A stretch of DNA of 9,199 nucleotides from a virus (IMGVR_UViG_2602041549_000006:1-9199); one strand, 5' to 3'. Shown: positions 108 to 7,968, counted from the stretch's first letter. Made by a program: numbers and translations. Notes: generated by a model not told the origin, from the letters alone.

Positions 108-410
108 TTAACTGCCAGTTGAAGGTTGGCCACGACCTTCCTCCTTTGGCTTGTGAATTTGTATCGTCATGCCGCTTTGAGTGGTGACTACAATGACAGA
201 ACCAGGCTGAAGGCTGTTAAGATTGAATGCTTCGTAAAACGAATCCAATGCCAGTGCTTTTTTATTCTTTCGGTTCCACCAACGCCATCCCTTGCTACAG
301 GCTACATCGACAATCCACTGTACACTCCTGTAAGCCATATAAAACCAGATGAGCAAAACCTGAAGGAATGCTATCCAGTCAATAATCGTATATTTCGCGA
401 AGGAGTCCAT
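108..410 (-). CDS. Small hypothetical protein (about 100 aa) with one strongly hydrophobic N-terminal segment (IIDWIAFLQVLLIWFYMAY); probable small membrane protein
   Basis: ORF 108..413 in the track begins with GTG at 413; the ATG at 410-408 is preceded by a strong SD (AGGAGGTGA) and overlaps the upstream stop as TGATG. No recognisable domain. Confidence 0.45.
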   Translation of the reverse strand: MDSFAKYTIIDWIAFLQVLLIWFYMAYRSVQWIVDVACSKGWRWWNRKNKKALALDSFYEAFNLNSLQPGSVIVVTTQSGMTIQIHKPKEEGRGQPSTGS

Positions 411-919
411 CACTTCACCTCCTGCTGCGGTGCTGCTGGCATTTCACGCCAGTGCGTAACTGAGTGCGGATCCGGATATTCGGTGCCATCATCCCAGCGA
501 TTGCCATTCCACATTGCAGACCACATCTCACCGTCTTCATACATGACCATTACCGGAATTAACTTATCCGGCATTCGCTCACTACAGCTTATCCAACCAT
601 CCGGAGTTGCCGGAGAATTGCCATTTACCAAGTCAGCTCGAACATATAGCGTGTCATCATGGTGCTGATTGTGGCTGCACCACGTTAATTCGCTTAACTC
701 GCCATCTTCTGGCCATACTCCAGCCGTTTGCAGCCAGATATGGGCTGGCGCATCTTGGCAAGGTGTATTAACTGGCAACTTGTAAGTTTGGCTTACAGGT
801 TCTGCTCCCAGTGATGCCAGTGCAATCCGTGCCACTTCCATTTGTTCGCCACGGGTAAGCCCGTTATCAAGCGGATTTTTAATGGATAATTCAATACGTT
901 CTTTGGTAATAGTGGTCAT
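410..919 (-). CDS. Phage accessory protein, DUF551-like C-terminal region (169 aa)
   Basis: ATG at 919-917 with AAGGA upstream. The C-terminal stretch GWISCSERMPD...THWREMPAAP resembles the DUF551 pattern common in enterobacterial prophage early-left regions (recalled from memory). Stop overlaps the next start. Confidence 0.55.
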   Translation of the reverse strand: MTTITKERIELSIKNPLDNGLTRGEQMEVARIALASLGAEPVSQTYKLPVNTPCQDAPAHIWLQTAGVWPEDGELSELTWCSHNQHHDDTLYVRADLVNGNSPATPDGWISCSERMPDKLIPVMVMYEDGEMWSAMWNGNRWDDGTEYPDPHSVTHWREMPAAPQQEVK

Positions 920-1431
920 GCCGCGTTTCCTTCTTTCTTATTAACAATTACACCGTCATATATTTCATTAAGGTGCCCTCTCAACTCCATACGCCTTAAT
1001 GCAAATAACATGTAATCGCATTCAACCTGCTTATTTCCAGTAAATGGCTTATCGTCAGGATTACCCCAACAGCAATTACCCTTGGGCCACCCATGTACTT
1101 TCCGTACTCTTCCGTTAACAACGTGAAGTAATCCCCAGCCGGGAGGTAAATCCTCAACTGAAATAATTCCCGGCTCACTAATAAAGAATCGCCAGTCGCC
1201 CATTCCAAGAGATGGATTTTTACGAAAACGCTTTTTTCTATCTGCCAACAAGTCAGCACGAGAACACTTCGCCTCTATCAGGCATGATGCTGAATTTCTG
1301 AATCCCATAGCATCTGGCTGTTCTCCGGTACTGGTTACAGCTATAAAGCGGTCATGAAAACAAACCTTGAACCCATTGCGCTTAAGGAACTTATACGCAA
1401 TCTGACAGAGTTCGCGGTGTGTTAACGCCAT
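916..1431 (-). CDS. Hypothetical protein (171 aa) with a PD-x12-ExK arrangement (PDAMGF ... LIEAK); possible PD-(D/E)XK-fold nuclease
   Basis: Track ORF 916..1767 overlaps the upstream gene; the internal ATG at 1431-1429 has an AAGGAG SD and sits 1 nt after the upstream TGA stop. The motif was read directly from the translation; the fold assignment is inference. Confidence 0.5.
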   Translation of the reverse strand: MALTHRELCQIAYKFLKRNGFKVCFHDRFIAVTSTGEQPDAMGFRNSASCLIEAKCSRADLLADRKKRFRKNPSLGMGDWRFFISEPGIISVEDLPPGWGLLHVVNGRVRKVHGWPKGNCCWGNPDDKPFTGNKQVECDYMLFALRRMELRGHLNEIYDGVIVNKKEGNAA

Positions 1432-1432
1432 A

Positions 1433-2053
1433 TCACTCTCCTTTGATGCGAATGCCAGCTGCGCTTGCTGATTCTTCATATGCGCGTTTAGCAGCGTTAA
1501 GGATTGCTGCCAGTGGCGTATAGCCGCCATCCATTCGGATTGTGTTGTGGATGCCAGCCATTGTGTCGCGCAATTTGCTGTGGCTAGCAGACAGTTCTGC
1601 AATGCGCTTCTCTGCGGCTTCCAGCTTCTCGCGCATATCGTCAACGTACTCGACCAGAGATCCGCCAGCAGGAATTTCGCATTCCTCGACCAGTTGGAAG
1701 TAGATATCAGCTGCGGCCCGTGTGTTGCTATGCCTAGCGTCGCCCATCTCACCTTCACGAAGAGCATCGCGTTCGGCGGTAAGATTGGCTATTTTGCTGT
1801 CTTTGCCTTCCAGCTCAACGCGCAGCCTCCCTACCGTTAGCGCAATATCCTCGTTCTCCTGATCGCGGCTTTTGATGTATTGCAGGTTTCTTTCCCGTTC
1901 ATCCAACAATGCCAGCGCGATATCTGGCGAAAAGTGCTTCATAAAATCGTTAAGCGCATTAATTCGCTGATCGAAAGGCATTACAGGTGCTTCACCAGCA
2001 ATTTTTGTTTTTTCAGCGATTTCACGAAGCTTTTGATAATCAATCTTGCTCAT
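1433..2053 (-). CDS. Ead/Ea22-like phage protein (206 aa) with a coiled-coil segment
   Basis: The N-terminus MSKIDYQKLREIAEK matches the typical start of Ead/Ea22-like prophage proteins (recalled). AAGGAG SD present; ATGA overlap with the upstream gene's stop. Confidence 0.6.
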   Translation of the reverse strand: MSKIDYQKLREIAEKTKIAGEAPVMPFDQRINALNDFMKHFSPDIALALLDERERNLQYIKSRDQENEDIALTVGRLRVELEGKDSKIANLTAERDALREGEMGDARHSNTRAAADIYFQLVEECEIPAGGSLVEYVDDMREKLEAAEKRIAELSASHSKLRDTMAGIHNTIRMDGGYTPLAAILNAAKRAYEESASAAGIRIKGE

Positions 2054-2889
2054 TGGATGACTCCTTTACGAAGCTGTTCGGCGATATCTTCGAGAACGCC
2101 ATCAGAGAATGAACGGTCAAAATCGCCTTCCGGCGCATTAGCCATAAACTCAGTAGAGGTAAGAATCATCCGGGCAATATCCGCGGCGTTCTTCGCAGTA
2201 TCATCAATAAAACCAGCTTCCCAGGCAGCCAGCATTCTGTTCGCCACAAAGTAAGCGCCCTCCTTGCGTGCTTCAGTCTTCACTTCAGCCAGGAAAGCAT
2301 CGGTGGCTGGGGTGTCTGATTGCAGAGACTTTGCGCGATAGTCATTCCACCCTCTTGCATACATGGGATTAACTTGCACTCCATCTTTTACGCAATATGC
2401 CTGCCCTCCACGGTTGATAACCTTGATTTCGTCCATAGCGCCAGACTTCATCCCCGCATTCTCCGCTGCCAGCTCCGCGCACTTGGCCTCAAGAGCGGCA
2501 ACCACTTCCTGATGGTCTTTGTACTTAACGTATGAGCCGGAGATGTCATCACCTTCGGTGTTTAGCCATGCGTCATTGCAATTCACTGCGTAGGTTCTGA
2601 TGCTCTCCCGCCTATGACAGACGCCAGGCCAGTCAATAAAGTATCCGCATTCCTTCTCAGATTGCTTAAGCGATGTATTTTCAGCAGCCATCTTCGCGCA
2701 TTTAGCCTCAAGGTTATCAATCGTGATTCCAGCAGAACGACACTCCCGCAACGCCGTTTCCAGTTTTGATTCAAGTTCACCGAACTTACGGACAAGATAT
2801 TCAGCGTTTGTTTCGTTAACCTTTAAATCACTTGGGATGCATTTACCTTTCAGAAAACCATCCATCTCAATTAGTGACATTTGTTTCAT
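2050..2889 (-). CDS. Coiled-coil phage protein with an internal tandem duplication (Ea22-like region); start ambiguous
   Basis: Long minus-strand ORF. The track start at 2907 is GTG with no SD; the ATG at 2889 has GGAG upstream, so either could be real. The motif LEAKCAxxAAEN occurs twice in the protein and is visible as a DNA repeat (2476-2495 versus 2697-2715). Confidence 0.5.
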   Translation of the reverse strand: MKQMSLIEMDGFLKGKCIPSDLKVNETNAEYLVRKFGELESKLETALRECRSAGITIDNLEAKCAKMAAENTSLKQSEKECGYFIDWPGVCHRRESIRTYAVNCNDAWLNTEGDDISGSYVKYKDHQEVVAALEAKCAELAAENAGMKSGAMDEIKVINRGGQAYCVKDGVQVNPMYARGWNDYRAKSLQSDTPATDAFLAEVKTEARKEGAYFVANRMLAAWEAGFIDDTAKNAADIARMILTSTEFMANAPEGDFDRSFSDGVLEDIAEQLRKGVIQ

Positions 2890-2983
2890 TTCTTCCCACT
2901 CCGCCACATCGCATTCAGATATTTGTTGTCATTAACAGAACCGAAACTCTTTCTCTTAAGCAAGTCCTCTCATGGTAAATTCC

Positions 2984-3277
2984 TCAGTCATTACTGATAG
3001 CGCCATAACGTGAGCGGTAATTACGCAGGCGCGGGTCAATTTCAGGGAAGTGGGTATATGTGGCTTTGCGGAATGGTCGGATTGATGTCTGGTAAATTCG
3101 CTCGCGTTCTTCTTTCTCTGCAAGCCATATACAATGGCGAAATTCCTTTTCCTCTTTCGTTTCCTGCGGTATCGACATTATCAGGTTGTAGTTTTTCCTG
3201 AATTTATCCAGCACCTCCGATACGGAATTGCCGGAACATCGGCGCGCGTCATCCGCACCATACAGAGGCGCTGGCAT
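2984..3277 (-). CDS. Hypothetical small phage protein (97 aa)
   Basis: ATG at 3277-3275 preceded by an AGGAG SD; same orientation and tight spacing with neighbouring genes. No recognisable domain. Confidence 0.5.
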   Translation of the reverse strand: MPAPLYGADDARRCSGNSVSEVLDKFRKNYNLIMSIPQETKEEKEFRHCIWLAEKEERERIYQTSIRPFRKATYTHFPEIDPRLRNYRSRYGAISND

Positions 3278-3293
3278 GGTTTTCTCCTGTTGA

Positions 3294-3842
3294 TTATTTA
3301 GCTAACTTTTTCCAGATCGCTGAAACGTATTTGGCTTGGTGAATGGCATCATCAAGCGCGTTGTGGCGAGTTCCTTTGAATGGCATATCTCGCTTAGGGT
3401 CGAATCCTATTACCTTCCCAAGTTCGACGATTGTTCTTACGTCGCGGTCATTCCACCACTGCCACGGAACTGGCTGCCCTGTCAGCGAATAACTGTTTCG
3501 GAGAATAACGCAGTCAAATGATGCTCCATTCCCCCAAACCTGAACGAATTTGTGGTTAGCGTTCTTTATGATGAATTCAGATAACCATGAAAGAGCCGTT
3601 GAAAGCTCCTGAGTGTTGCTGGTTAGCGATTTTCTGGCTTCTTCACTCTGTTCCAGCCACCATAAAATCGTTGAAGCGTCAGGACGCGCTCGATATCGCA
3701 TTGATGACTCAAGCGAGATATTTACCGAGAACTCTTCTCCTGTTTCTCCGGTATTCGGGTCAAAGAATACCGCCCCAATAGAAATAACTGGCGCGTATGG
3801 CCCGTTGCCCATTGTTTCAAGGTCAACCATCAAGTGATTCAT
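3294..3842 (-). CDS. 3'-5' exonuclease, DEDD(h)/DnaQ-like fold (182 aa)
   Basis: N-terminal MVDLETMG (Exo I motif, D-x-E) and C-terminal HNALDDA (Exo III motif, H-x4-D) read from the translation. AAGGA SD upstream of the ATG at 3842. Confidence 0.7.
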   Translation of the reverse strand: MNHLMVDLETMGNGPYAPVISIGAVFFDPNTGETGEEFSVNISLESSMRYRARPDASTILWWLEQSEEARKSLTSNTQELSTALSWLSEFIIKNANHKFVQVWGNGASFDCVILRNSYSLTGQPVPWQWWNDRDVRTIVELGKVIGFDPKRDMPFKGTRHNALDDAIHQAKYVSAIWKKLAK

Positions 3843-3850
3843 GTAAGTCC

Positions 3851-4330
3851 TTAAATTGCGTGAATAGCGTGACGAGGGAAGGGGAGAGTTACTGGCTCCT
3901 CGTCTGGGTAGATAGGTTTGTTATGTTTGTGCCACTCGACATGACATGACTTGCAGAGCCACATCACATCGGTTGGTTTGCTGTAGTCGCAGTGGTGCGC
4001 CTGTGGTTTACATTCTGATCCGCAGCACTCACATTGTGGTGGTCGGATTAGCTTACCGTCGCGCAAAAAATTACCCACAATGATGTGGGCTTTTCTTTTC
4101 CATGGGTTGCTCTGAATGAACCGCTTTTTGGCTGCGTTACACCGTTCTCTTCCGCGTTCCGATGATTGATATTCTCTCCTTGCTGATACTCGATGTGGCA
4201 ATCCAGCGCGTTCTTTGTCGTATTCAGCCAGGCAAGCCCGGCAAGCGGCAGTTAATCCATCTCTGGATGCTCTTCTGATTTGAAAGTCCCTTTCTTCCTT
4301 ATGTTGATGGCATCTTGAGCAGATTTTCAT
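3851..4330 (-). CDS. HNH endonuclease (159 aa), zinc-binding, free-standing
   Basis: C-terminal QCECCG ... AHHCDYSKP ... WLCKSCHVEWH gives the HNH catalytic His pair plus Cys4-type metal ligands; additional CxxC pairs at the N-terminus. AGGAG SD upstream. Confidence 0.7.
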   Translation of the reverse strand: MKICSRCHQHKEERDFQIRRASRDGLTAACRACLAEYDKERAGLPHRVSARREYQSSERGRERCNAAKKRFIQSNPWKRKAHIIVGNFLRDGKLIRPPQCECCGSECKPQAHHCDYSKPTDVMWLCKSCHVEWHKHNKPIYPDEEPVTLPFPRHAIHAI

Positions 4331-4339
4331 ATTCAGCTC

Positions 4340-4813
4340 CTAGAACGGAATATCCGAATCGTCGAAGTTCATAGGTGGTTCGCTGTGATTCCCATGCTGC
4401 TGAGATTGCTGTCTTTGTTGCTGGCCGTTATTTCGCTGAGGTGAAGACTGTTCATTGCCTCCTTGCTTGCCACCAAGCATTTGCATGGTTCCACCAACGC
4501 CTACGATAACTTCGGTAGTGAACCGATCCTGTCCACTTTGATCCTGCCATTTTCTTGTCCGCAATTTGCCTTCAAGATAAACCTCTGAGCCTTTCCGCAG
4601 ATACTCGCTGGCAATTTCTGCCAGTTTCCCGCTCATTACCACACGGTGCCACTCCGTCTGCTCCTTTTGCTCTCCAGTTTGCTTATCACGCCATTGTTCT
4701 GACGTAGCAACTGTAAGGTTTGCAAATGCCGTTCCTGATGGTGAATATCTGATTTCTGGATCATGCCCAAGGCGACCAATAATGATCACCTTATTTACGC
4801 CTCTGCTTGCCAT
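4340..4813 (-). CDS. ssb: Single-stranded DNA-binding protein SSB (157 aa)
   Basis: OB-fold N-terminus ([17 protein letters not shown]...), Gly/Gln-rich linker and the canonical acidic tail DDSDIPF. Confidence 0.9.
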
Positions 4814-5521
4814 TTATGCCGCCTGTTTTAGCTCGTTAACTCTGATGTTCATTACCTGAACGCATTTAGCCTGCGCATCCTCATTGCCAGCCATTAATTG
4901 CCAGTCACGCTGATAACGCTCTATGAGTTTTTTCTTGTCAGTTTCTGTTGATGCATAATCGCTGAAGTCTTTCAGGATTTGTTCGCAGTCAACCGATGGA
5001 GATTTCTGGTTGGTATTTTCTGGTGATGGTTTGTTATCTGATGCTGGGATTGCCCATCCCGGCAGCGATGGAGGGAGCCAGTAAAATCCTGTTCCATCCT
5101 TCAGTTTTGCCCTGTGCCACCCCTGCTTTTTATCGAGAGATGTTTGTGCGAAACCTTCCTCAAGGTTATACAGATACCGACCGATTCCCCATTGAACGGC
5201 AGCACGCTTCATTGCACCGGAACGACCACCTTTGACGGCTTCTACCTGCGTGTTTTCAGCAGCATCCCATTTGGTTACCCATTCGGAATCAATCTTGATT
5301 GATATGCCGCATTCAACTCCGCCGTTGTTGGGAATATCGCGGTATTCATTGCGCCATCCTGCTTTGCCGCAAACATCGTCCAGGCGTTTCATGATTGCCC
5401 GGTTCGTGACATAAGCCAGCACCATAGCCCACACCTTGCCATCGCGTGTTTTACCGCTTTGCTGTATTCGCCATTCGATATCTTCAGGGCTGAATGGCTC
5501 ATCGAATTTGTTCAAATCCAT
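4814..5521 (-). CDS. Single-strand annealing recombinase, Rad52/Sak-like family (235 aa); functional analogue of lambda Bet / P22 Erf
   Basis: Motifs GWRNEY, GGVECGISI and AVQWGIGRYLY fit Rad52-family annealing proteins (recalled). Sits immediately upstream of ssb, with a GAGGTGA SD. Confidence 0.65.
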   Translation of the reverse strand: MDLNKFDEPFSPEDIEWRIQQSGKTRDGKVWAMVLAYVTNRAIMKRLDDVCGKAGWRNEYRDIPNNGGVECGISIKIDSEWVTKWDAAENTQVEAVKGGRSGAMKRAAVQWGIGRYLYNLEEGFAQTSLDKKQGWHRAKLKDGTGFYWLPPSLPGWAIPASDNKPSPENTNQKSPSVDCEQILKDFSDYASTETDKKKLIERYQRDWQLMAGNEDAQAKCVQVMNIRVNELKQAA

Positions 5522-5620: not shown

Positions 5621-5779
5621 TTATGGCGATACCAGAGAGCTTTCTGCGTGTACATGCGTCTCTGTAACTTGCTCTCCTTCACTGTGGTTGCAAGTGACAT
5701 GAATATCTCCTTCGTTACCGATTAATTCTTTCATCTGACGAATGAATTCTTCGTCTGACCATTTATCTGTAAAACTCAT
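5621..5779 (-). CDS. Small protein (52 aa) in the kil position, downstream of and translationally coupled to cIII; function unknown
   Basis: ATG at 5779-5777 overlaps the cIII stop as ATGA. Assignment is by position only; the longer track ORF 5621..5809 would overlap cIII by 34 nt. Confidence 0.35.
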   Translation of the reverse strand: MSFTDKWSDEEFIRQMKELIGNEGDIHVTCNHSEGEQVTETHVHAESSLVSP

Positions 5780-5946
5780 GGACGGCCTTGTTGTTTCAAA
5801 ATATCCCAAAGCTTTTCGAGCAAACTTTTCATTCTTGGTTGTTTAAAGTCTGCTCCGGTTAAAATGTTTTTTCGTGAATGCTGTACCGATAAAATCGGGT
5901 TGAAAGGGCGAACCGATGCCGCCCCTGCAATAGCGAACTGTTGCAT
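5776..5946 (-). CDS. cIII: CIII-like protein (56 aa); regulator that protects CII from FtsH
   Basis: Internal ATG at 5946-5944 with an AAGGAG SD. The protein MQQFAIAGAAS...LLEKLWDILKQQGRP resembles lambda CIII (MQYAIAGW...LIDILNQPGVP) in start, length and C-terminus. The longer track ORF would read through the terminator hairpin. Confidence 0.65.
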   Translation of the reverse strand: MQQFAIAGAASVRPFNPILSVQHSRKNILTGADFKQPRMKSLLEKLWDILKQQGRP

Positions 5947-6011
5947 AGGATGCTCCTTCTGTTTGATTGCATAACGAAAACGCCTCGAGTGAAGCGTTAT
6001 TGGTATGCATA

Positions 6012-6036
6012 TAAAAAAGCCCTCACACTGGAGGGC
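6012..6036 (-). terminator. Intrinsic terminator on the minus strand (tL1-like), downstream of the N plus orf156 unit
   Basis: The minus strand reads GCCCTC-cagtgt-GAGGGC followed by TTTTTTAT: a 6-bp GC stem, 6-nt loop and T6 tract. There is no T-tract on the plus-strand side. Confidence 0.6.
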
Positions 6037-6098
6037 AAAGAAGATTTCCAATAATCAGAACAAGTCGGCTCCTGTTTAGTTACGAGCGACATTGCTCC

Positions 6099-6126
6099 GT
6101 GTATTCACTCGTTGGAATGAATACAC
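6099..6126. repeat. Perfect 9-bp inverted repeat (GTGTATTCA-N10-TGAATACAC) just 3' of orf156
   Basis: Read directly from the sequence; no adjacent U-tract, so not a classical terminator. Confidence 0.5.
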
Positions 6127-6140
6127 AGTGCTTATTCGTA

Positions 6141-6611
6141 CTAATAAAACACCCAGTTTTCTGTTTCTTGGTTGTGTCCAAAGTTATATTCAATACCTGG
6201 TGTTGATGTATCAATATTCTTCATCCCATCAACAAGAGTTGATACAACAGCCAAATCTTGTTTGATTCTCATCAAATGGTATTTCTTCCGGCGCAATAAA
6301 CTTTCAATGGCAAGTTTCTTCGTCGGGAATGCAAAAGATCTTTCTGCATTTTTTGCTACTTTCTTAATTGCATATCTATTTCTCCTTTGTTTCCATTCCT
6401 GTAACCACTGATTTGGTGCTGGTTTAAAATTAACAATCCAATGCGCAGGAACCAACCATGCATAATGCTCTGTCTGATGAAAAGCTATATATTGAAGTGC
6501 GAATATTTTGATTCCATCTTCTTCAACTGTCGCTTGGAATCTCCAGAAAACAGGCATTCCATCATGTTCAGTTTCTGATTCAGGAAAAGGTACGCTCCAT
6601 GATTTTGTCAT
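6141..6611 (-). CDS. Hypothetical protein (156 aa), AT-rich moron in the ral/sieB position directly after N; function unknown
   Basis: ATG at 6611-6609 with SD GAGGTGA overlapping the N stop codon. The segment is visibly AT-rich compared with its flanks. No recognisable domain, no transmembrane segment. Confidence 0.6.
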   Translation of the reverse strand: MTKSWSVPFPESETEHDGMPVFWRFQATVEEDGIKIFALQYIAFHQTEHYAWLVPAHWIVNFKPAPNQWLQEWKQRRNRYAIKKVAKNAERSFAFPTKKLAIESLLRRKKYHLMRIKQDLAVVSTLVDGMKNIDTSTPGIEYNFGHNQETENWVFY

Positions 6612-6619
6612 ATATCACC

Positions 6620-6955
6620 TCAAATAAGTGGTTTGCTGCCTAATTTCATTTTCTGGCGACCAACACAAGTCACACCCATTTCACTGCGTGGCTTGCGGTA
6701 GTAAATACGATTCTGTTTACTCTCGACTTCATCTGCCTTCTTGCAGCGAAGGATTCCGAGTGATATTGCTTTTTCAGAAAGGCTTAAACGCTTTCTTGGG
6801 GCTTCCTGAACAGGTTCCTCACTGTCTGTGCCGAAGATAGAATCAATGATGTTGCAGATGGCATCACGCTCGATAGCCAGCTTTCTGCGCCGCTCATGAC
6901 GGCGAGTTTTGGCATTTCCTGCAAATGTTGATTTCCCGTACACGATTACCGTCAT
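6620..6955 (-). CDS. N: Antitermination protein N (112 aa) with a P22-type arginine-rich motif and a lambda-like C-terminus
   Basis: The N-terminus MTVIVYGKSTFAGNAKTRRHERRRKLAIER matches the P22 N ARM peptide (recalled); the C-terminus YYRKPRSEMGVTCVGRQKMKLGSKPLI parallels the lambda N C-terminus (WYSKPGERGITCSGRQKIKGKSIPLI). ATG at 6955 with AGGA upstream; the track ORF extends to 7039. Confidence 0.85.
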   Translation of the reverse strand: MTVIVYGKSTFAGNAKTRRHERRRKLAIERDAICNIIDSIFGTDSEEPVQEAPRKRLSLSEKAISLGILRCKKADEVESKQNRIYYRKPRSEMGVTCVGRQKMKLGSKPLI

Positions 6956-7074
6956 GATGTTTTCCTCATGTGAAATGGCTTTGGTGGTGATGCGCCAGAT
7001 GCTGATCTTCTGGTTGCTGTCGTTGCAGCTGCAATTCACATCACCGCCAAATCCATCTCGTTTGGTATCTGTTT

Positions 7075-7109
7075 GCGCTTTGTCAGCGCCCCATCGAAGT
7101 TAAAGAGCA
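7075..7109 (-). promoter_or_regulatory. nutL: boxA (TGCTCTTTA) and boxB hairpin (GCGCTGACAAAGCGC)
   Basis: On the minus strand: boxA-like TGCTCTTTA, a 12-nt spacer, then a 4-bp GCGC stem closing a loop that contains GACAA. This matches my recollection of P22 nutL boxB. It lies between the predicted PL and N. Confidence 0.7.
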
Positions 7110-7154
7110 TGCCAATCTGTTCCGTTTGGCTTCCAGCTTCCTGCTGATGGCTAA

Positions 7155-7183
7155 ATAGTACGATGTGTACTTTATTGAGTCAA
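7155..7183 (-). promoter_or_regulatory. PL candidate: -35 TTGACT (7178-7183), 17-bp spacer, -10 TACTAT (7155-7160), overlapped by operator-like palindromes
   Basis: Hexamers read on the minus strand. The 13-bp perfect palindrome TATTGAGTCAATA (7173-7185) overlaps the -35 and AGTAC-N5-GTACT (7157-7171) overlaps the -10/spacer. Confidence 0.5.
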
Positions 7184-7242
7184 TACAAAATGTTCTAAAT
7201 ATAATTAGTTTTTTATAACGCTTTGTATTTAATAGGTTTATA

Positions 7243-7278
7243 TTTTGGAAAAAGAAAACCCGACGCTAAGGTCGGGTT
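7243..7278 (-). terminator. Intrinsic terminator downstream of cI (weaker on the plus strand)
   Basis: 8-bp stem AACCCGAC/GTCGGGTT with a 6-nt loop; on the minus strand it is followed by TTCTTTTTCC, on the plus strand by ATTGTTGTGTATTTT. Confidence 0.6.
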
Positions 7279-7308
7279 ATTGTTGTGTATTTTAGAGTTG
7301 TGAGGCTG

Positions 7309-7968
7309 TTAACTAAATGTCTCTTCAGGCCACTGGCTGGCGATAACTTTCCCTACTACGGAACAGCTATCATTGCATGGAATCATTGGATATTGCGGGT
7401 TTAGTGGCTGTAGGAACACCTGACCGCTATCCCTGATCAGTTTCTTGAAGGTAAACTCATCACCTCCAAGTCTGGCTATGCAAAAATCACCGGGCTCAAT
7501 AGCCTGCTCAGGGTCAACAAGAATTAACATCCCGTCAGGAAAGCTTGGCTTGGATCCTGTTGGCGCGGTCATGGAATTACCTTCAACCTCAAGCCAGAAT
7601 GCAGAATCACTGGCTTTTTTGGTTGTGCTTACCCATCTCTCCGCATCACCTTTGGTAAAGGTTCTAAGCTCAGGCGAGAACATCCCGGCCTGAACATGAG
7701 AAAAAACAGGGTACTCATATTGTTTTTTAACGGGGGCAGATGAGTATTCGCCAACAGGTGAAAATGTACCGTCGTGGTTGAATGAGACGTTATCAATACC
7801 AAGGTATTTAAACACCACACCAATCTCGTCAAGAGATGGATGACGAGATCCGCGCAACCAGTGACCAATTCCACCCTGCGTCATACCAAGCTCTTCAGCT
7901 AACTTCTCTTGAGTTATGCCGAGTTCTTTCATTCTGGATCTAGCCAGTTCATACCATTTCATTTTCAT
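7309..7968 (-). CDS. cI: CI-type prophage repressor (219 aa): non-lambda N-terminal HTH domain fused to a lambda-cI-like LexA/S24 C-terminal domain
   Basis: The C-terminal about 130 aa ([19 protein letters not shown] ... [12 protein letters not shown]) is near-identical to lambda cI as I recall it, including the Ala-Gly cleavage site and the Ser and Lys of the catalytic dyad; the N-terminal about 85 aa is different. ATG at 7968-7966 with an AAGGA SD; the track ORF extends to 8043. Confidence 0.9.

Follow-up and report, generated by a model that had tools for sequence, protein, structure and literature searches.

The interval between the antiterminator gene N and the conserved terminator region of lambdoid phages is occupied by different genes in different phages. 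Lambda and HK140 carry sieB and ral at this place, HK544 carries ral alone, mEp235 has a Nun-like exclusion gene and a 207-aa ORF, Salmonella phage 146851_sal5 has sieB and a 121-aa membrane ORF, and further occupants between N and the backbone are small Cys-rich or other ORFs. Lambda Ral, which alleviates restriction, is a 66-aa protein expressed early from PL. The superinfection-exclusion protein SieB of lambda and P22, encoded in the variable slot beside N, has its own promoter, is expressed from the prophage, and is membrane-associated. Morons, as usually defined in the sense of Juhala and Hendrix, possess both a promoter and a terminator of their own; those of the Hendrix type (e.g., HK97 gene 15) are AT-rich, present or absent between similar phages, and bounded by novel joints. 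The closest known systems further include the Tudor, PipX, PWWP, KOW, and UvrD-CTD domains, small beta-barrels with nucleic acid or RNA polymerase as their binding partners. Finally, HK97, 933W, phage 86, and H-19B have the order N, ORF, terminator, cIII, in which the ORF is named gp45 in HK97 and L0079 in 933W; a literature search for L0079, HK97 gp45, and phrog_1636 retrieved no experiment or published function.

We analyzed a member of this last group in a 9,199-nt stretch of viral DNA (IMGVR_UViG_2602041549_000006:1-9199, hereafter the window). The window is the PL (early-left) region of a lambdoid prophage, with the genes reading along the minus strand (Table 1). Its 156-aa ORF matches the phrog_1636 profile over residues 1-156 of 156 (E = 1.1e-111), and the encoded protein is 98.7% identical to HK97 gp45 (AAF31125.1) and 99.4% identical to 933W L0079 (AAD25424.1). 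The orf57 of Stx2-phage 86, the H-19B ORF, and their equivalents in many Stx1a/Stx2a phages are the same gene (98-100% protein identity), and BP-4795 is another Shiga-toxin phage that carries it beside 933W and H-19B. Gene order, strand, Shine-Dalgarno sequence, and downstream backbone are shared with HK97, 933W, phage 86, and H-19B, whereas the allele itself is 100% identical to those of ATCC 11775, S88, and APEC O1 (WP_000167596.1). The initial annotation had implied a novel ORF; the gene is instead the long-catalogued and functionally uncharacterised HK97 gp45 / 933W L0079.

Table 1. Features of the early-left region in the 9,199-nt window (positions are counted from its first letter).
Feature	Position	Strand	Remarks
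cI	8043->7309	-	244 aa as listed
Hairpin terminator after cI	7278-7257		scan; scores as terminator on both strands
PL-like promoter TTGACT-17-TACTAT	7155..7183	-	consensus scan; 3' of cI terminator hairpin, 5' of nutL
nutL: boxA GCTCTTTAAC + boxB GCGCTGACAAAGCGC	7077..7109	-	read from sequence
Antiterminator N, 112 aa	6620..6958	-	Pfam N_peptide E 7.6e-26; phrog_271 E 1.4e-45
N stop TGA	6622-6620	-
Shine-Dalgarno GAGGTGA of 156-aa ORF	6615..6621	-	overlaps N stop TGA
156-aa ORF ATG	6611-6609	-	8 nt past N stop
156-aa ORF, HK97 gp45 / 933W L0079 / phrog_1636 family	6141..6611	-
Hairpin, 9-bp perfect inverted repeat, arms 6099-6107 / 6118-6126	6099..6126	-	12-bp RNA stem; identical to lambda ~34013-34040
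Intrinsic terminator GCCCTC-N6-GAGGGC + T6	6013..6036	-	lambda ~33925-33950, between ea10 and ral
Second terminator-like hairpin, just 5' of cIII	5979..5998	-	lambda ~33495-33515
cIII	5776..5946	-	phrog_550 E 1e-22
Rad52/Erf-like annealing protein	4814-5521	-
SSB	4340-4813	-
Cys-rich 159-aa endonuclease-like ORF	3851-4330	-	phrog_2340; weak N-terminal Lar-like match
Rv2179c-like 3'-5' exonuclease	3294-3842	-
Abc2 anti-RecBCD	2984-3277	-
Ea22-like or coiled-coil ORFs (two)	1433-2053, 2050-2907	-
283-aa ORF	916-1767	-	phrog_9263; start probably internal
DUF551	410-919	-
DUF4752	108-413	-

A megablast search of 5426 complete E. coli genomes located the gene in 598, with a maximum of four copies per genome, and among the genome matches listed it bears the RefSeq label 'hypothetical protein'. 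The 86 full-length copies represent 29 DNA alleles, each of which is intact; 21 of the 23 polymorphic sites among these copies are third positions of codons, with a pN/pS of 0.023. Homologues with 55-84% identity occur in Pectobacterium, Brenneria, Cronobacter, Rosenbergiella, Serratia, and metagenomes, with a mean column identity of 74% across Enterobacterales. The 156-aa ORF is a genuine protein-coding gene under strong purifying selection. It is also, as first noticed from the sequence, much more AT-rich than its flanks: the computed GC content is 36.7% (GC3 29.3%), whereas the window as a whole has 45.9% and its other genes have 41-50%, and only 0.8% of all 471-nt segments are as AT-rich, with the minimum at 6112. 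In each lineage checked, gp45-family genes lie 3-9 GC points under their flanks.

Compared with lambda, the ORF is placed between two conserved recombination anchors, where it replaces sieB and ral with joints at the gene boundaries. On the downstream side, positions 6008-6131 share 98% identity with lambda 33920-34045 (the ea10-ral interval, just 3' of ral), positions 5923-6008 match lambda 33443-33522 (the cIII start and leader), and the lambda homology ends 10 nt from the stop codon of the ORF. On the upstream side, the 55 nt that precede the ATG represent the 3' end of N, encoding ..TCVGRQKMKLGSKPLI, the lambda N counterpart being ..ITCSGRQKIKGKSIPLI; depending on the locus, upstream homology breaks at about -17, -29, or -55 nt, and GAGGTGA[G/T]AT-ATG is retained in all E. 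coli-type loci, irrespective of the DNA that precedes it. The initial assignment of the ORF to the ral/sieB slot is therefore borne out by lambda homology on both flanks and by the exact replacement of sieB and ral, and the gene content at the N-cIII junction, compared across related phages as had been proposed, varies as expected of such a slot (ral, sieB, Nun-like, ea10, and others). The segment between the 156-aa ORF and cIII varies as well; it is empty in some loci and in others holds ea10, a 103-aa ORF labelled 'superinfection exclusion', an HNH-like gene, or a 354-aa coiled-coil ORF.

The initial annotation had also reported a perfect 9-bp inverted repeat followed by an intrinsic terminator, both of which are present, and had interpreted the whole as a moron forming a self-contained cassette. 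The latter interpretation does not hold. Because of their 98% identity to lambda, the inverted repeat and both terminators belong to the lambdoid backbone and lie outside the inserted unit; this DNA is found in 326 phage records, most of which are devoid of the ORF (83 carry it). It presumably lies within the bet-ral interval of lambda, to which the leftward terminators tL1 and tL2 have been assigned. The two terminator hairpins, which flank ea10 in lambda, stand side by side in the window because ea10 is absent, and the HK97 record annotates a putative terminator at the place that corresponds to the intrinsic one. The 181-nt leader between the ORF and cIII (5965-6145, minus strand) contains four consecutive hairpins (z = -5.9 against shuffled controls), and an Rfam search of positions 5700-7400 gave no match. 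A consensus scan from PL (7183-7155) to the ATG detected no sigma-70-like promoter, although weak or atypical sites could escape such a scan. The gene thus resembles the Hendrix-type morons in its deviant composition, its presence/absence polymorphism, and its novel joints at the boundaries; however, the analysis identified no promoter and no terminator belonging to it, which sets it apart from morons as usually defined. It belongs to the PL operon as an accessory gene and is read toward backbone terminators.

The junction with N is as originally described, with the Shine-Dalgarno sequence overlapping the N stop codon and the ATG following after 8 nt (Table 1), yet, contrary to what the initial annotation had suggested, this arrangement is not a property of the gene. 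Among 78 related loci with an identifiable N, the 8-nt gap of the window recurs in 24, whereas in 27 loci the gap is 58 nt, as the HK97/933W-type N ends earlier (TGA in ..GGTGACTTG..), and in the other 27 it amounts to 200-1165 nt with other small genes intervening. The tight junction is therefore specific to the P22-type N allele, while HK97 and 933W, otherwise alike in this region, have the 58-nt gap.

Homologues in other phages occupy further positions. A metagenomic homologue with 71% identity starts 2 nt past an N gene. In Pectobacterium and Brenneria prophages (loci L088 and L089; 3950-4560), the homologue stands at the distal end of the early-left operon, directly ahead of xis-int, and has terminator-like hairpins on both sides, unlike the N-adjacent gene of E. 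coli. In Bas81 it is the first gene of the early operon, ahead of ParB-like and RusA genes, and in a Vibrio phage it lies in the early operon 5' of a putative replication-initiator gene. The constant elements among these homologues are the strand and the operon, which is early-left or, in non-lambdoid phages, early.

The proposed early expression from PL is supported by the layout of the region. PL and nutL precede N, which has a P22-type arginine-rich motif (Pfam N_peptide match), and boxB is of the P22 type. Transcription would proceed from PL through nutL and N into the ORF, after which the first intrinsic terminator is encountered; a hairpin scan from PL to 6036 identified no terminator-like structure ahead of the end of the ORF. 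N and the ORF are thus expected together on an immediate-early leftward transcript, ahead of N-dependent read-through, unless Rho-dependent termination intervenes within N or the ORF. In the present allele, ribosomes finishing N would re-initiate at the ORF, given the overlap of its Shine-Dalgarno sequence with the N stop codon and the ATG 8 nt further on. The 156-aa protein is probably made with N, before any other delayed-early gene.

The product is an 18.6-kDa protein that is predicted to be soluble and has no transmembrane segment (maximum Kyte-Doolittle score 0.56 with a window of 19 residues). Residues 76-117 are strongly basic, with 15 Lys/Arg against 2 Asp/Glu (+13), and are bordered by acidic segments on either side. 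The absence of a recognisable domain noted at the outset was confirmed by searches of Pfam, NCBIfam, and PDB sequences, none of which gave a match, and of PADLOC-DB, where the best match was at chance level (Cas1_II, E = 0.018, 12 bits) and no defence system was matched. A profile search of 1.8 billion representative proteins recovered 87 relatives, 15 of them at E<=1e-10, most of 130-165 aa and aligned over positions 20-135. An alignment of 67 sequences shows the pattern [FY]-[YW]-[RK]...G-h...[HRK]-E-T...K-x(2-3)-[SR]-R-[FY]-[AC]-[FY]-x-[TS]-K..A...L..RK..[QH]-L; all 67 aligned members match phrog_1636, 57 match phrog_13631, and 30 match phrog_25384, and none has a Pfam match. By these profile matches, the wider family comprises four PHROGs of unknown function, namely phrog_1636, 13631, 25384, and 28215. 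A tblastn search of the phage collection with a remote member returned only the already known Vibrio phage, and a word-based search with the Vibrio homologue added one further protein. Candidate domain fusions were rejected: P0060 (940 aa), a repeat protein, was matched falsely, and nothing could be learned from P0081 and P0052.

With the 67-sequence alignment, AlphaFold2 produced a confident model (pLDDT 94.3, pTM 0.81), whereas the model obtained from close homologues alone was poor. The predicted fold consists of a three-stranded antiparallel sheet (strands 19-30, 33-46, and 50-55), short helices (56-61 and 66-74), a fourth strand (83-86), and a 33-residue helix (98-130). A fold search of this model against the PDB yielded no significant match to any solved structure, including the solved anti-defence proteins; the structural check suggested with the initial annotation thus returned no PDB hit to a characterised housekeeping or structural protein. 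The BFVD gave 12 structure matches at E<=1e-3, from phages of Erwinia, Achromobacter, Rhizobium, Delftia, Cellulophaga, Tenacibaculum, and others, and the neighbours of remote members include RecT/YqaJ, DNA polymerase A, dCTP deaminase, exonuclease, SNF2 helicase, and ERF genes. Two specific identities were considered and dropped. A 2H phosphoesterase of the Acb1 type had been prompted by H45-Q-T47 and the size of 156 aa, and both a second H-x-T/S motif and a 2H fold match are absent. T4 PinA, a Lon inhibitor of similar size, was set aside on the annotation of the matching PHROGs, which does not mention it.

We tentatively propose that the gene encodes an immediate-early protein which, at the very start of infection or induction, attaches to nucleic acid or to a host factor involved in nucleic-acid handling, and thereby benefits the phage. 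Counter-defence or host takeover would be its most likely purpose, and the preference is based on the company that the gene keeps in the slot and on the timing of its expression. Nucleic-acid binding is suggested by charge and gene context, that is, by the basic segment 76-117 with the motif K-x(2-3)-[SR]-R-[FY]-[AC]-[FY]-x-[TS]-K..A..L..RK, by the soluble character of the protein, and by the DNA-metabolism neighbours. The lack of a match in PADLOC or among solved structures, by sequence or by fold, counts against this proposal. Published surveys count against it as well: a DefenseFinder run that included the gene-bearing phages phi315, phi345, and phi419 found only a methyltransferase, Ral, and Gam (PMC12502783), and the 156-aa gene is absent from the supplementary files of an accessory-gene screen (PMC12373910).

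The same basic segment and neighbours would also suit a helper in the phage's own replication, recombination, or transcription, i.e., a small DNA- or RNA-binding factor with no anti-immunity role, which we regard as possible though somewhat unlikely. Remote members reside inside replication/recombination modules of both temperate and virulent phages, the Bas81 gene precedes those for ParB-like and RusA proteins, and the family extends over phages of Proteobacteria and Bacteroidota, suggesting a universal target; such a spread over very different hosts and DNA-metabolism modules is explained no worse by a general DNA/RNA function than by an immune antagonist directed at particular hosts. A helper of this kind is less easily reconciled with the dispensability of the gene, which is patchy among lambdoid phages of the same backbone (83 of ~326 records) and has no fixed partner gene, or with a lambdoid slot that is otherwise held by host-directed genes (ral, sieB, and Nun-like).

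A functional analogue of SieB, guarding the lysogen by superinfection exclusion or abortive infection, is improbable. Such a protein would explain the use of the sieB slot, the AT-richness typical of lysogenic-conversion inserts, and the very common occurrence in E. coli prophages, at up to four copies per genome; however, with no sigma-70-like promoter detected by the scan between PL and the ORF, the gene is expected to be silent under cI repression. Moreover, a tblastn search with SieB gave no match in the ORF-bearing loci, and the soluble product, free of transmembrane segments, shares neither homology with SieB nor the hydrophobic membrane character of that protein. PADLOC gave no match either, and the structural relatives include phages annotated as virulent types, in which prophage protection makes little sense.

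Still less probable is a substitution of ral in both position and function, in which the protein would relieve type I restriction-modification as Ral does. The 156-aa gene and ral do share the interval between N and the conserved terminator region, the strand, and early expression from PL; sieB and ral are replaced between identical flanks, and tblastn found neither gene in the other ORF-bearing loci examined. Mutual exclusion with ral, which had been suggested by 92 loci, is nevertheless disproved by phage vB_EcoP_phi367 (locus L100, 1972-2708), whose order N-..-ral-hairpin-ORF combines both genes in tandem (155/156 identical for the 156-aa one), with a terminator-like hairpin between them. 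In addition, the two proteins differ in length (156 aa vs. 66 aa) and have no sequence similarity: lambda Ral used in tblastn matches lambda only among the loci, never overlapping the 156-aa ORF, and neither PHROG nor Pfam links the ORF to Ral. Judged by sequence, the 156-aa protein is not a Ral homologue. Lastly, a chance ORF in AT-rich filler DNA, for which the unusual composition is the sole argument, has practically no probability left, being refuted by the codon-position pattern and pN/pS of intact alleles, the homologues across Enterobacterales, and the confidently predicted fold.

The gene is carried by about one in nine complete E. coli genomes, by many Shiga-toxin phages, and by the model phage HK97, and has been called 'hypothetical' for 25 years. 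The broadest extension of the counter-defence and host-takeover reading is that the gp45/L0079 family (phrog_1636, 13631, 25384, and 28215) constitutes a phage-wide group of immediate-early effectors, not recognised before and possessing their own fold, which neutralise nucleic-acid-sensing or -cutting host defences or reprogram host RNA polymerase or the nucleoid; we consider it unlikely, but if true, the gene of Shiga-toxin phages would affect the range of E. coli strains open to lysogenisation. Should it encode a plain accessory DNA-binding protein, the interest would be modest. Its place in the ral/sieB slot, the probable co-production with N, and the broad family with an orphan predicted fold make it a sensible candidate for counter-defence and host-takeover screening, for which HK97 and lambda hybrids provide a system with good genetics. 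In itself the gene is a moderately interesting screening candidate and no discovery; the present analysis adds the exact boundaries of the module relative to lambda, the allele-specificity of its tight coupling to N, and a much wider family with a confidently modelled orphan fold.

Several other features of the region were observed. The listed cI ORF has about 25 surplus N-terminal residues ahead of its helix-turn-helix domain (HTH_3 at 36-83), and the true start is probably an internal Met. In loci with the HK97/933W-type N, where the annotated stop TGA precedes gp45 by 58 nt (window 6620-6680, minus strand; HK97 locus L005, 2885-3000; equivalents in 933W and phage 86), the conserved N C-terminal peptide ..TCVGRQKMKLGSKPLI is still encoded in another frame, within a 43-aa ORF in 35 loci; this out-of-frame C-terminus may be what a recombination joint has left behind, or it may indicate that N reaches its C-terminus by frameshifting. 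A 31-aa ORF, MSLVTKQEPTCSDYWKSSLPSSVRAFLYAYQ (6093-5998, minus strand), starts 48 nt past the stop of the 156-aa ORF and traverses the terminator hairpin. The conservation of its first 20 codons is due to their lying in the lambda backbone, and its start is elsewhere joined to other downstream sequences, including the 354-aa coiled-coil ORF (HK544 gp37-like); in this window it is probably not a gene. Positions 410-2907 (minus strand) contain a series of uncharacterised early-left genes, among which the ORFs at 916-1767 and 1433-2053 overlap by more than 300 nt, so that one of the two starts is probably wrong. The recombination module (2984-5521, minus strand) is of the P22/Sf6 type and includes Abc2, and the phage is thus already equipped with a RecBCD inhibitor.
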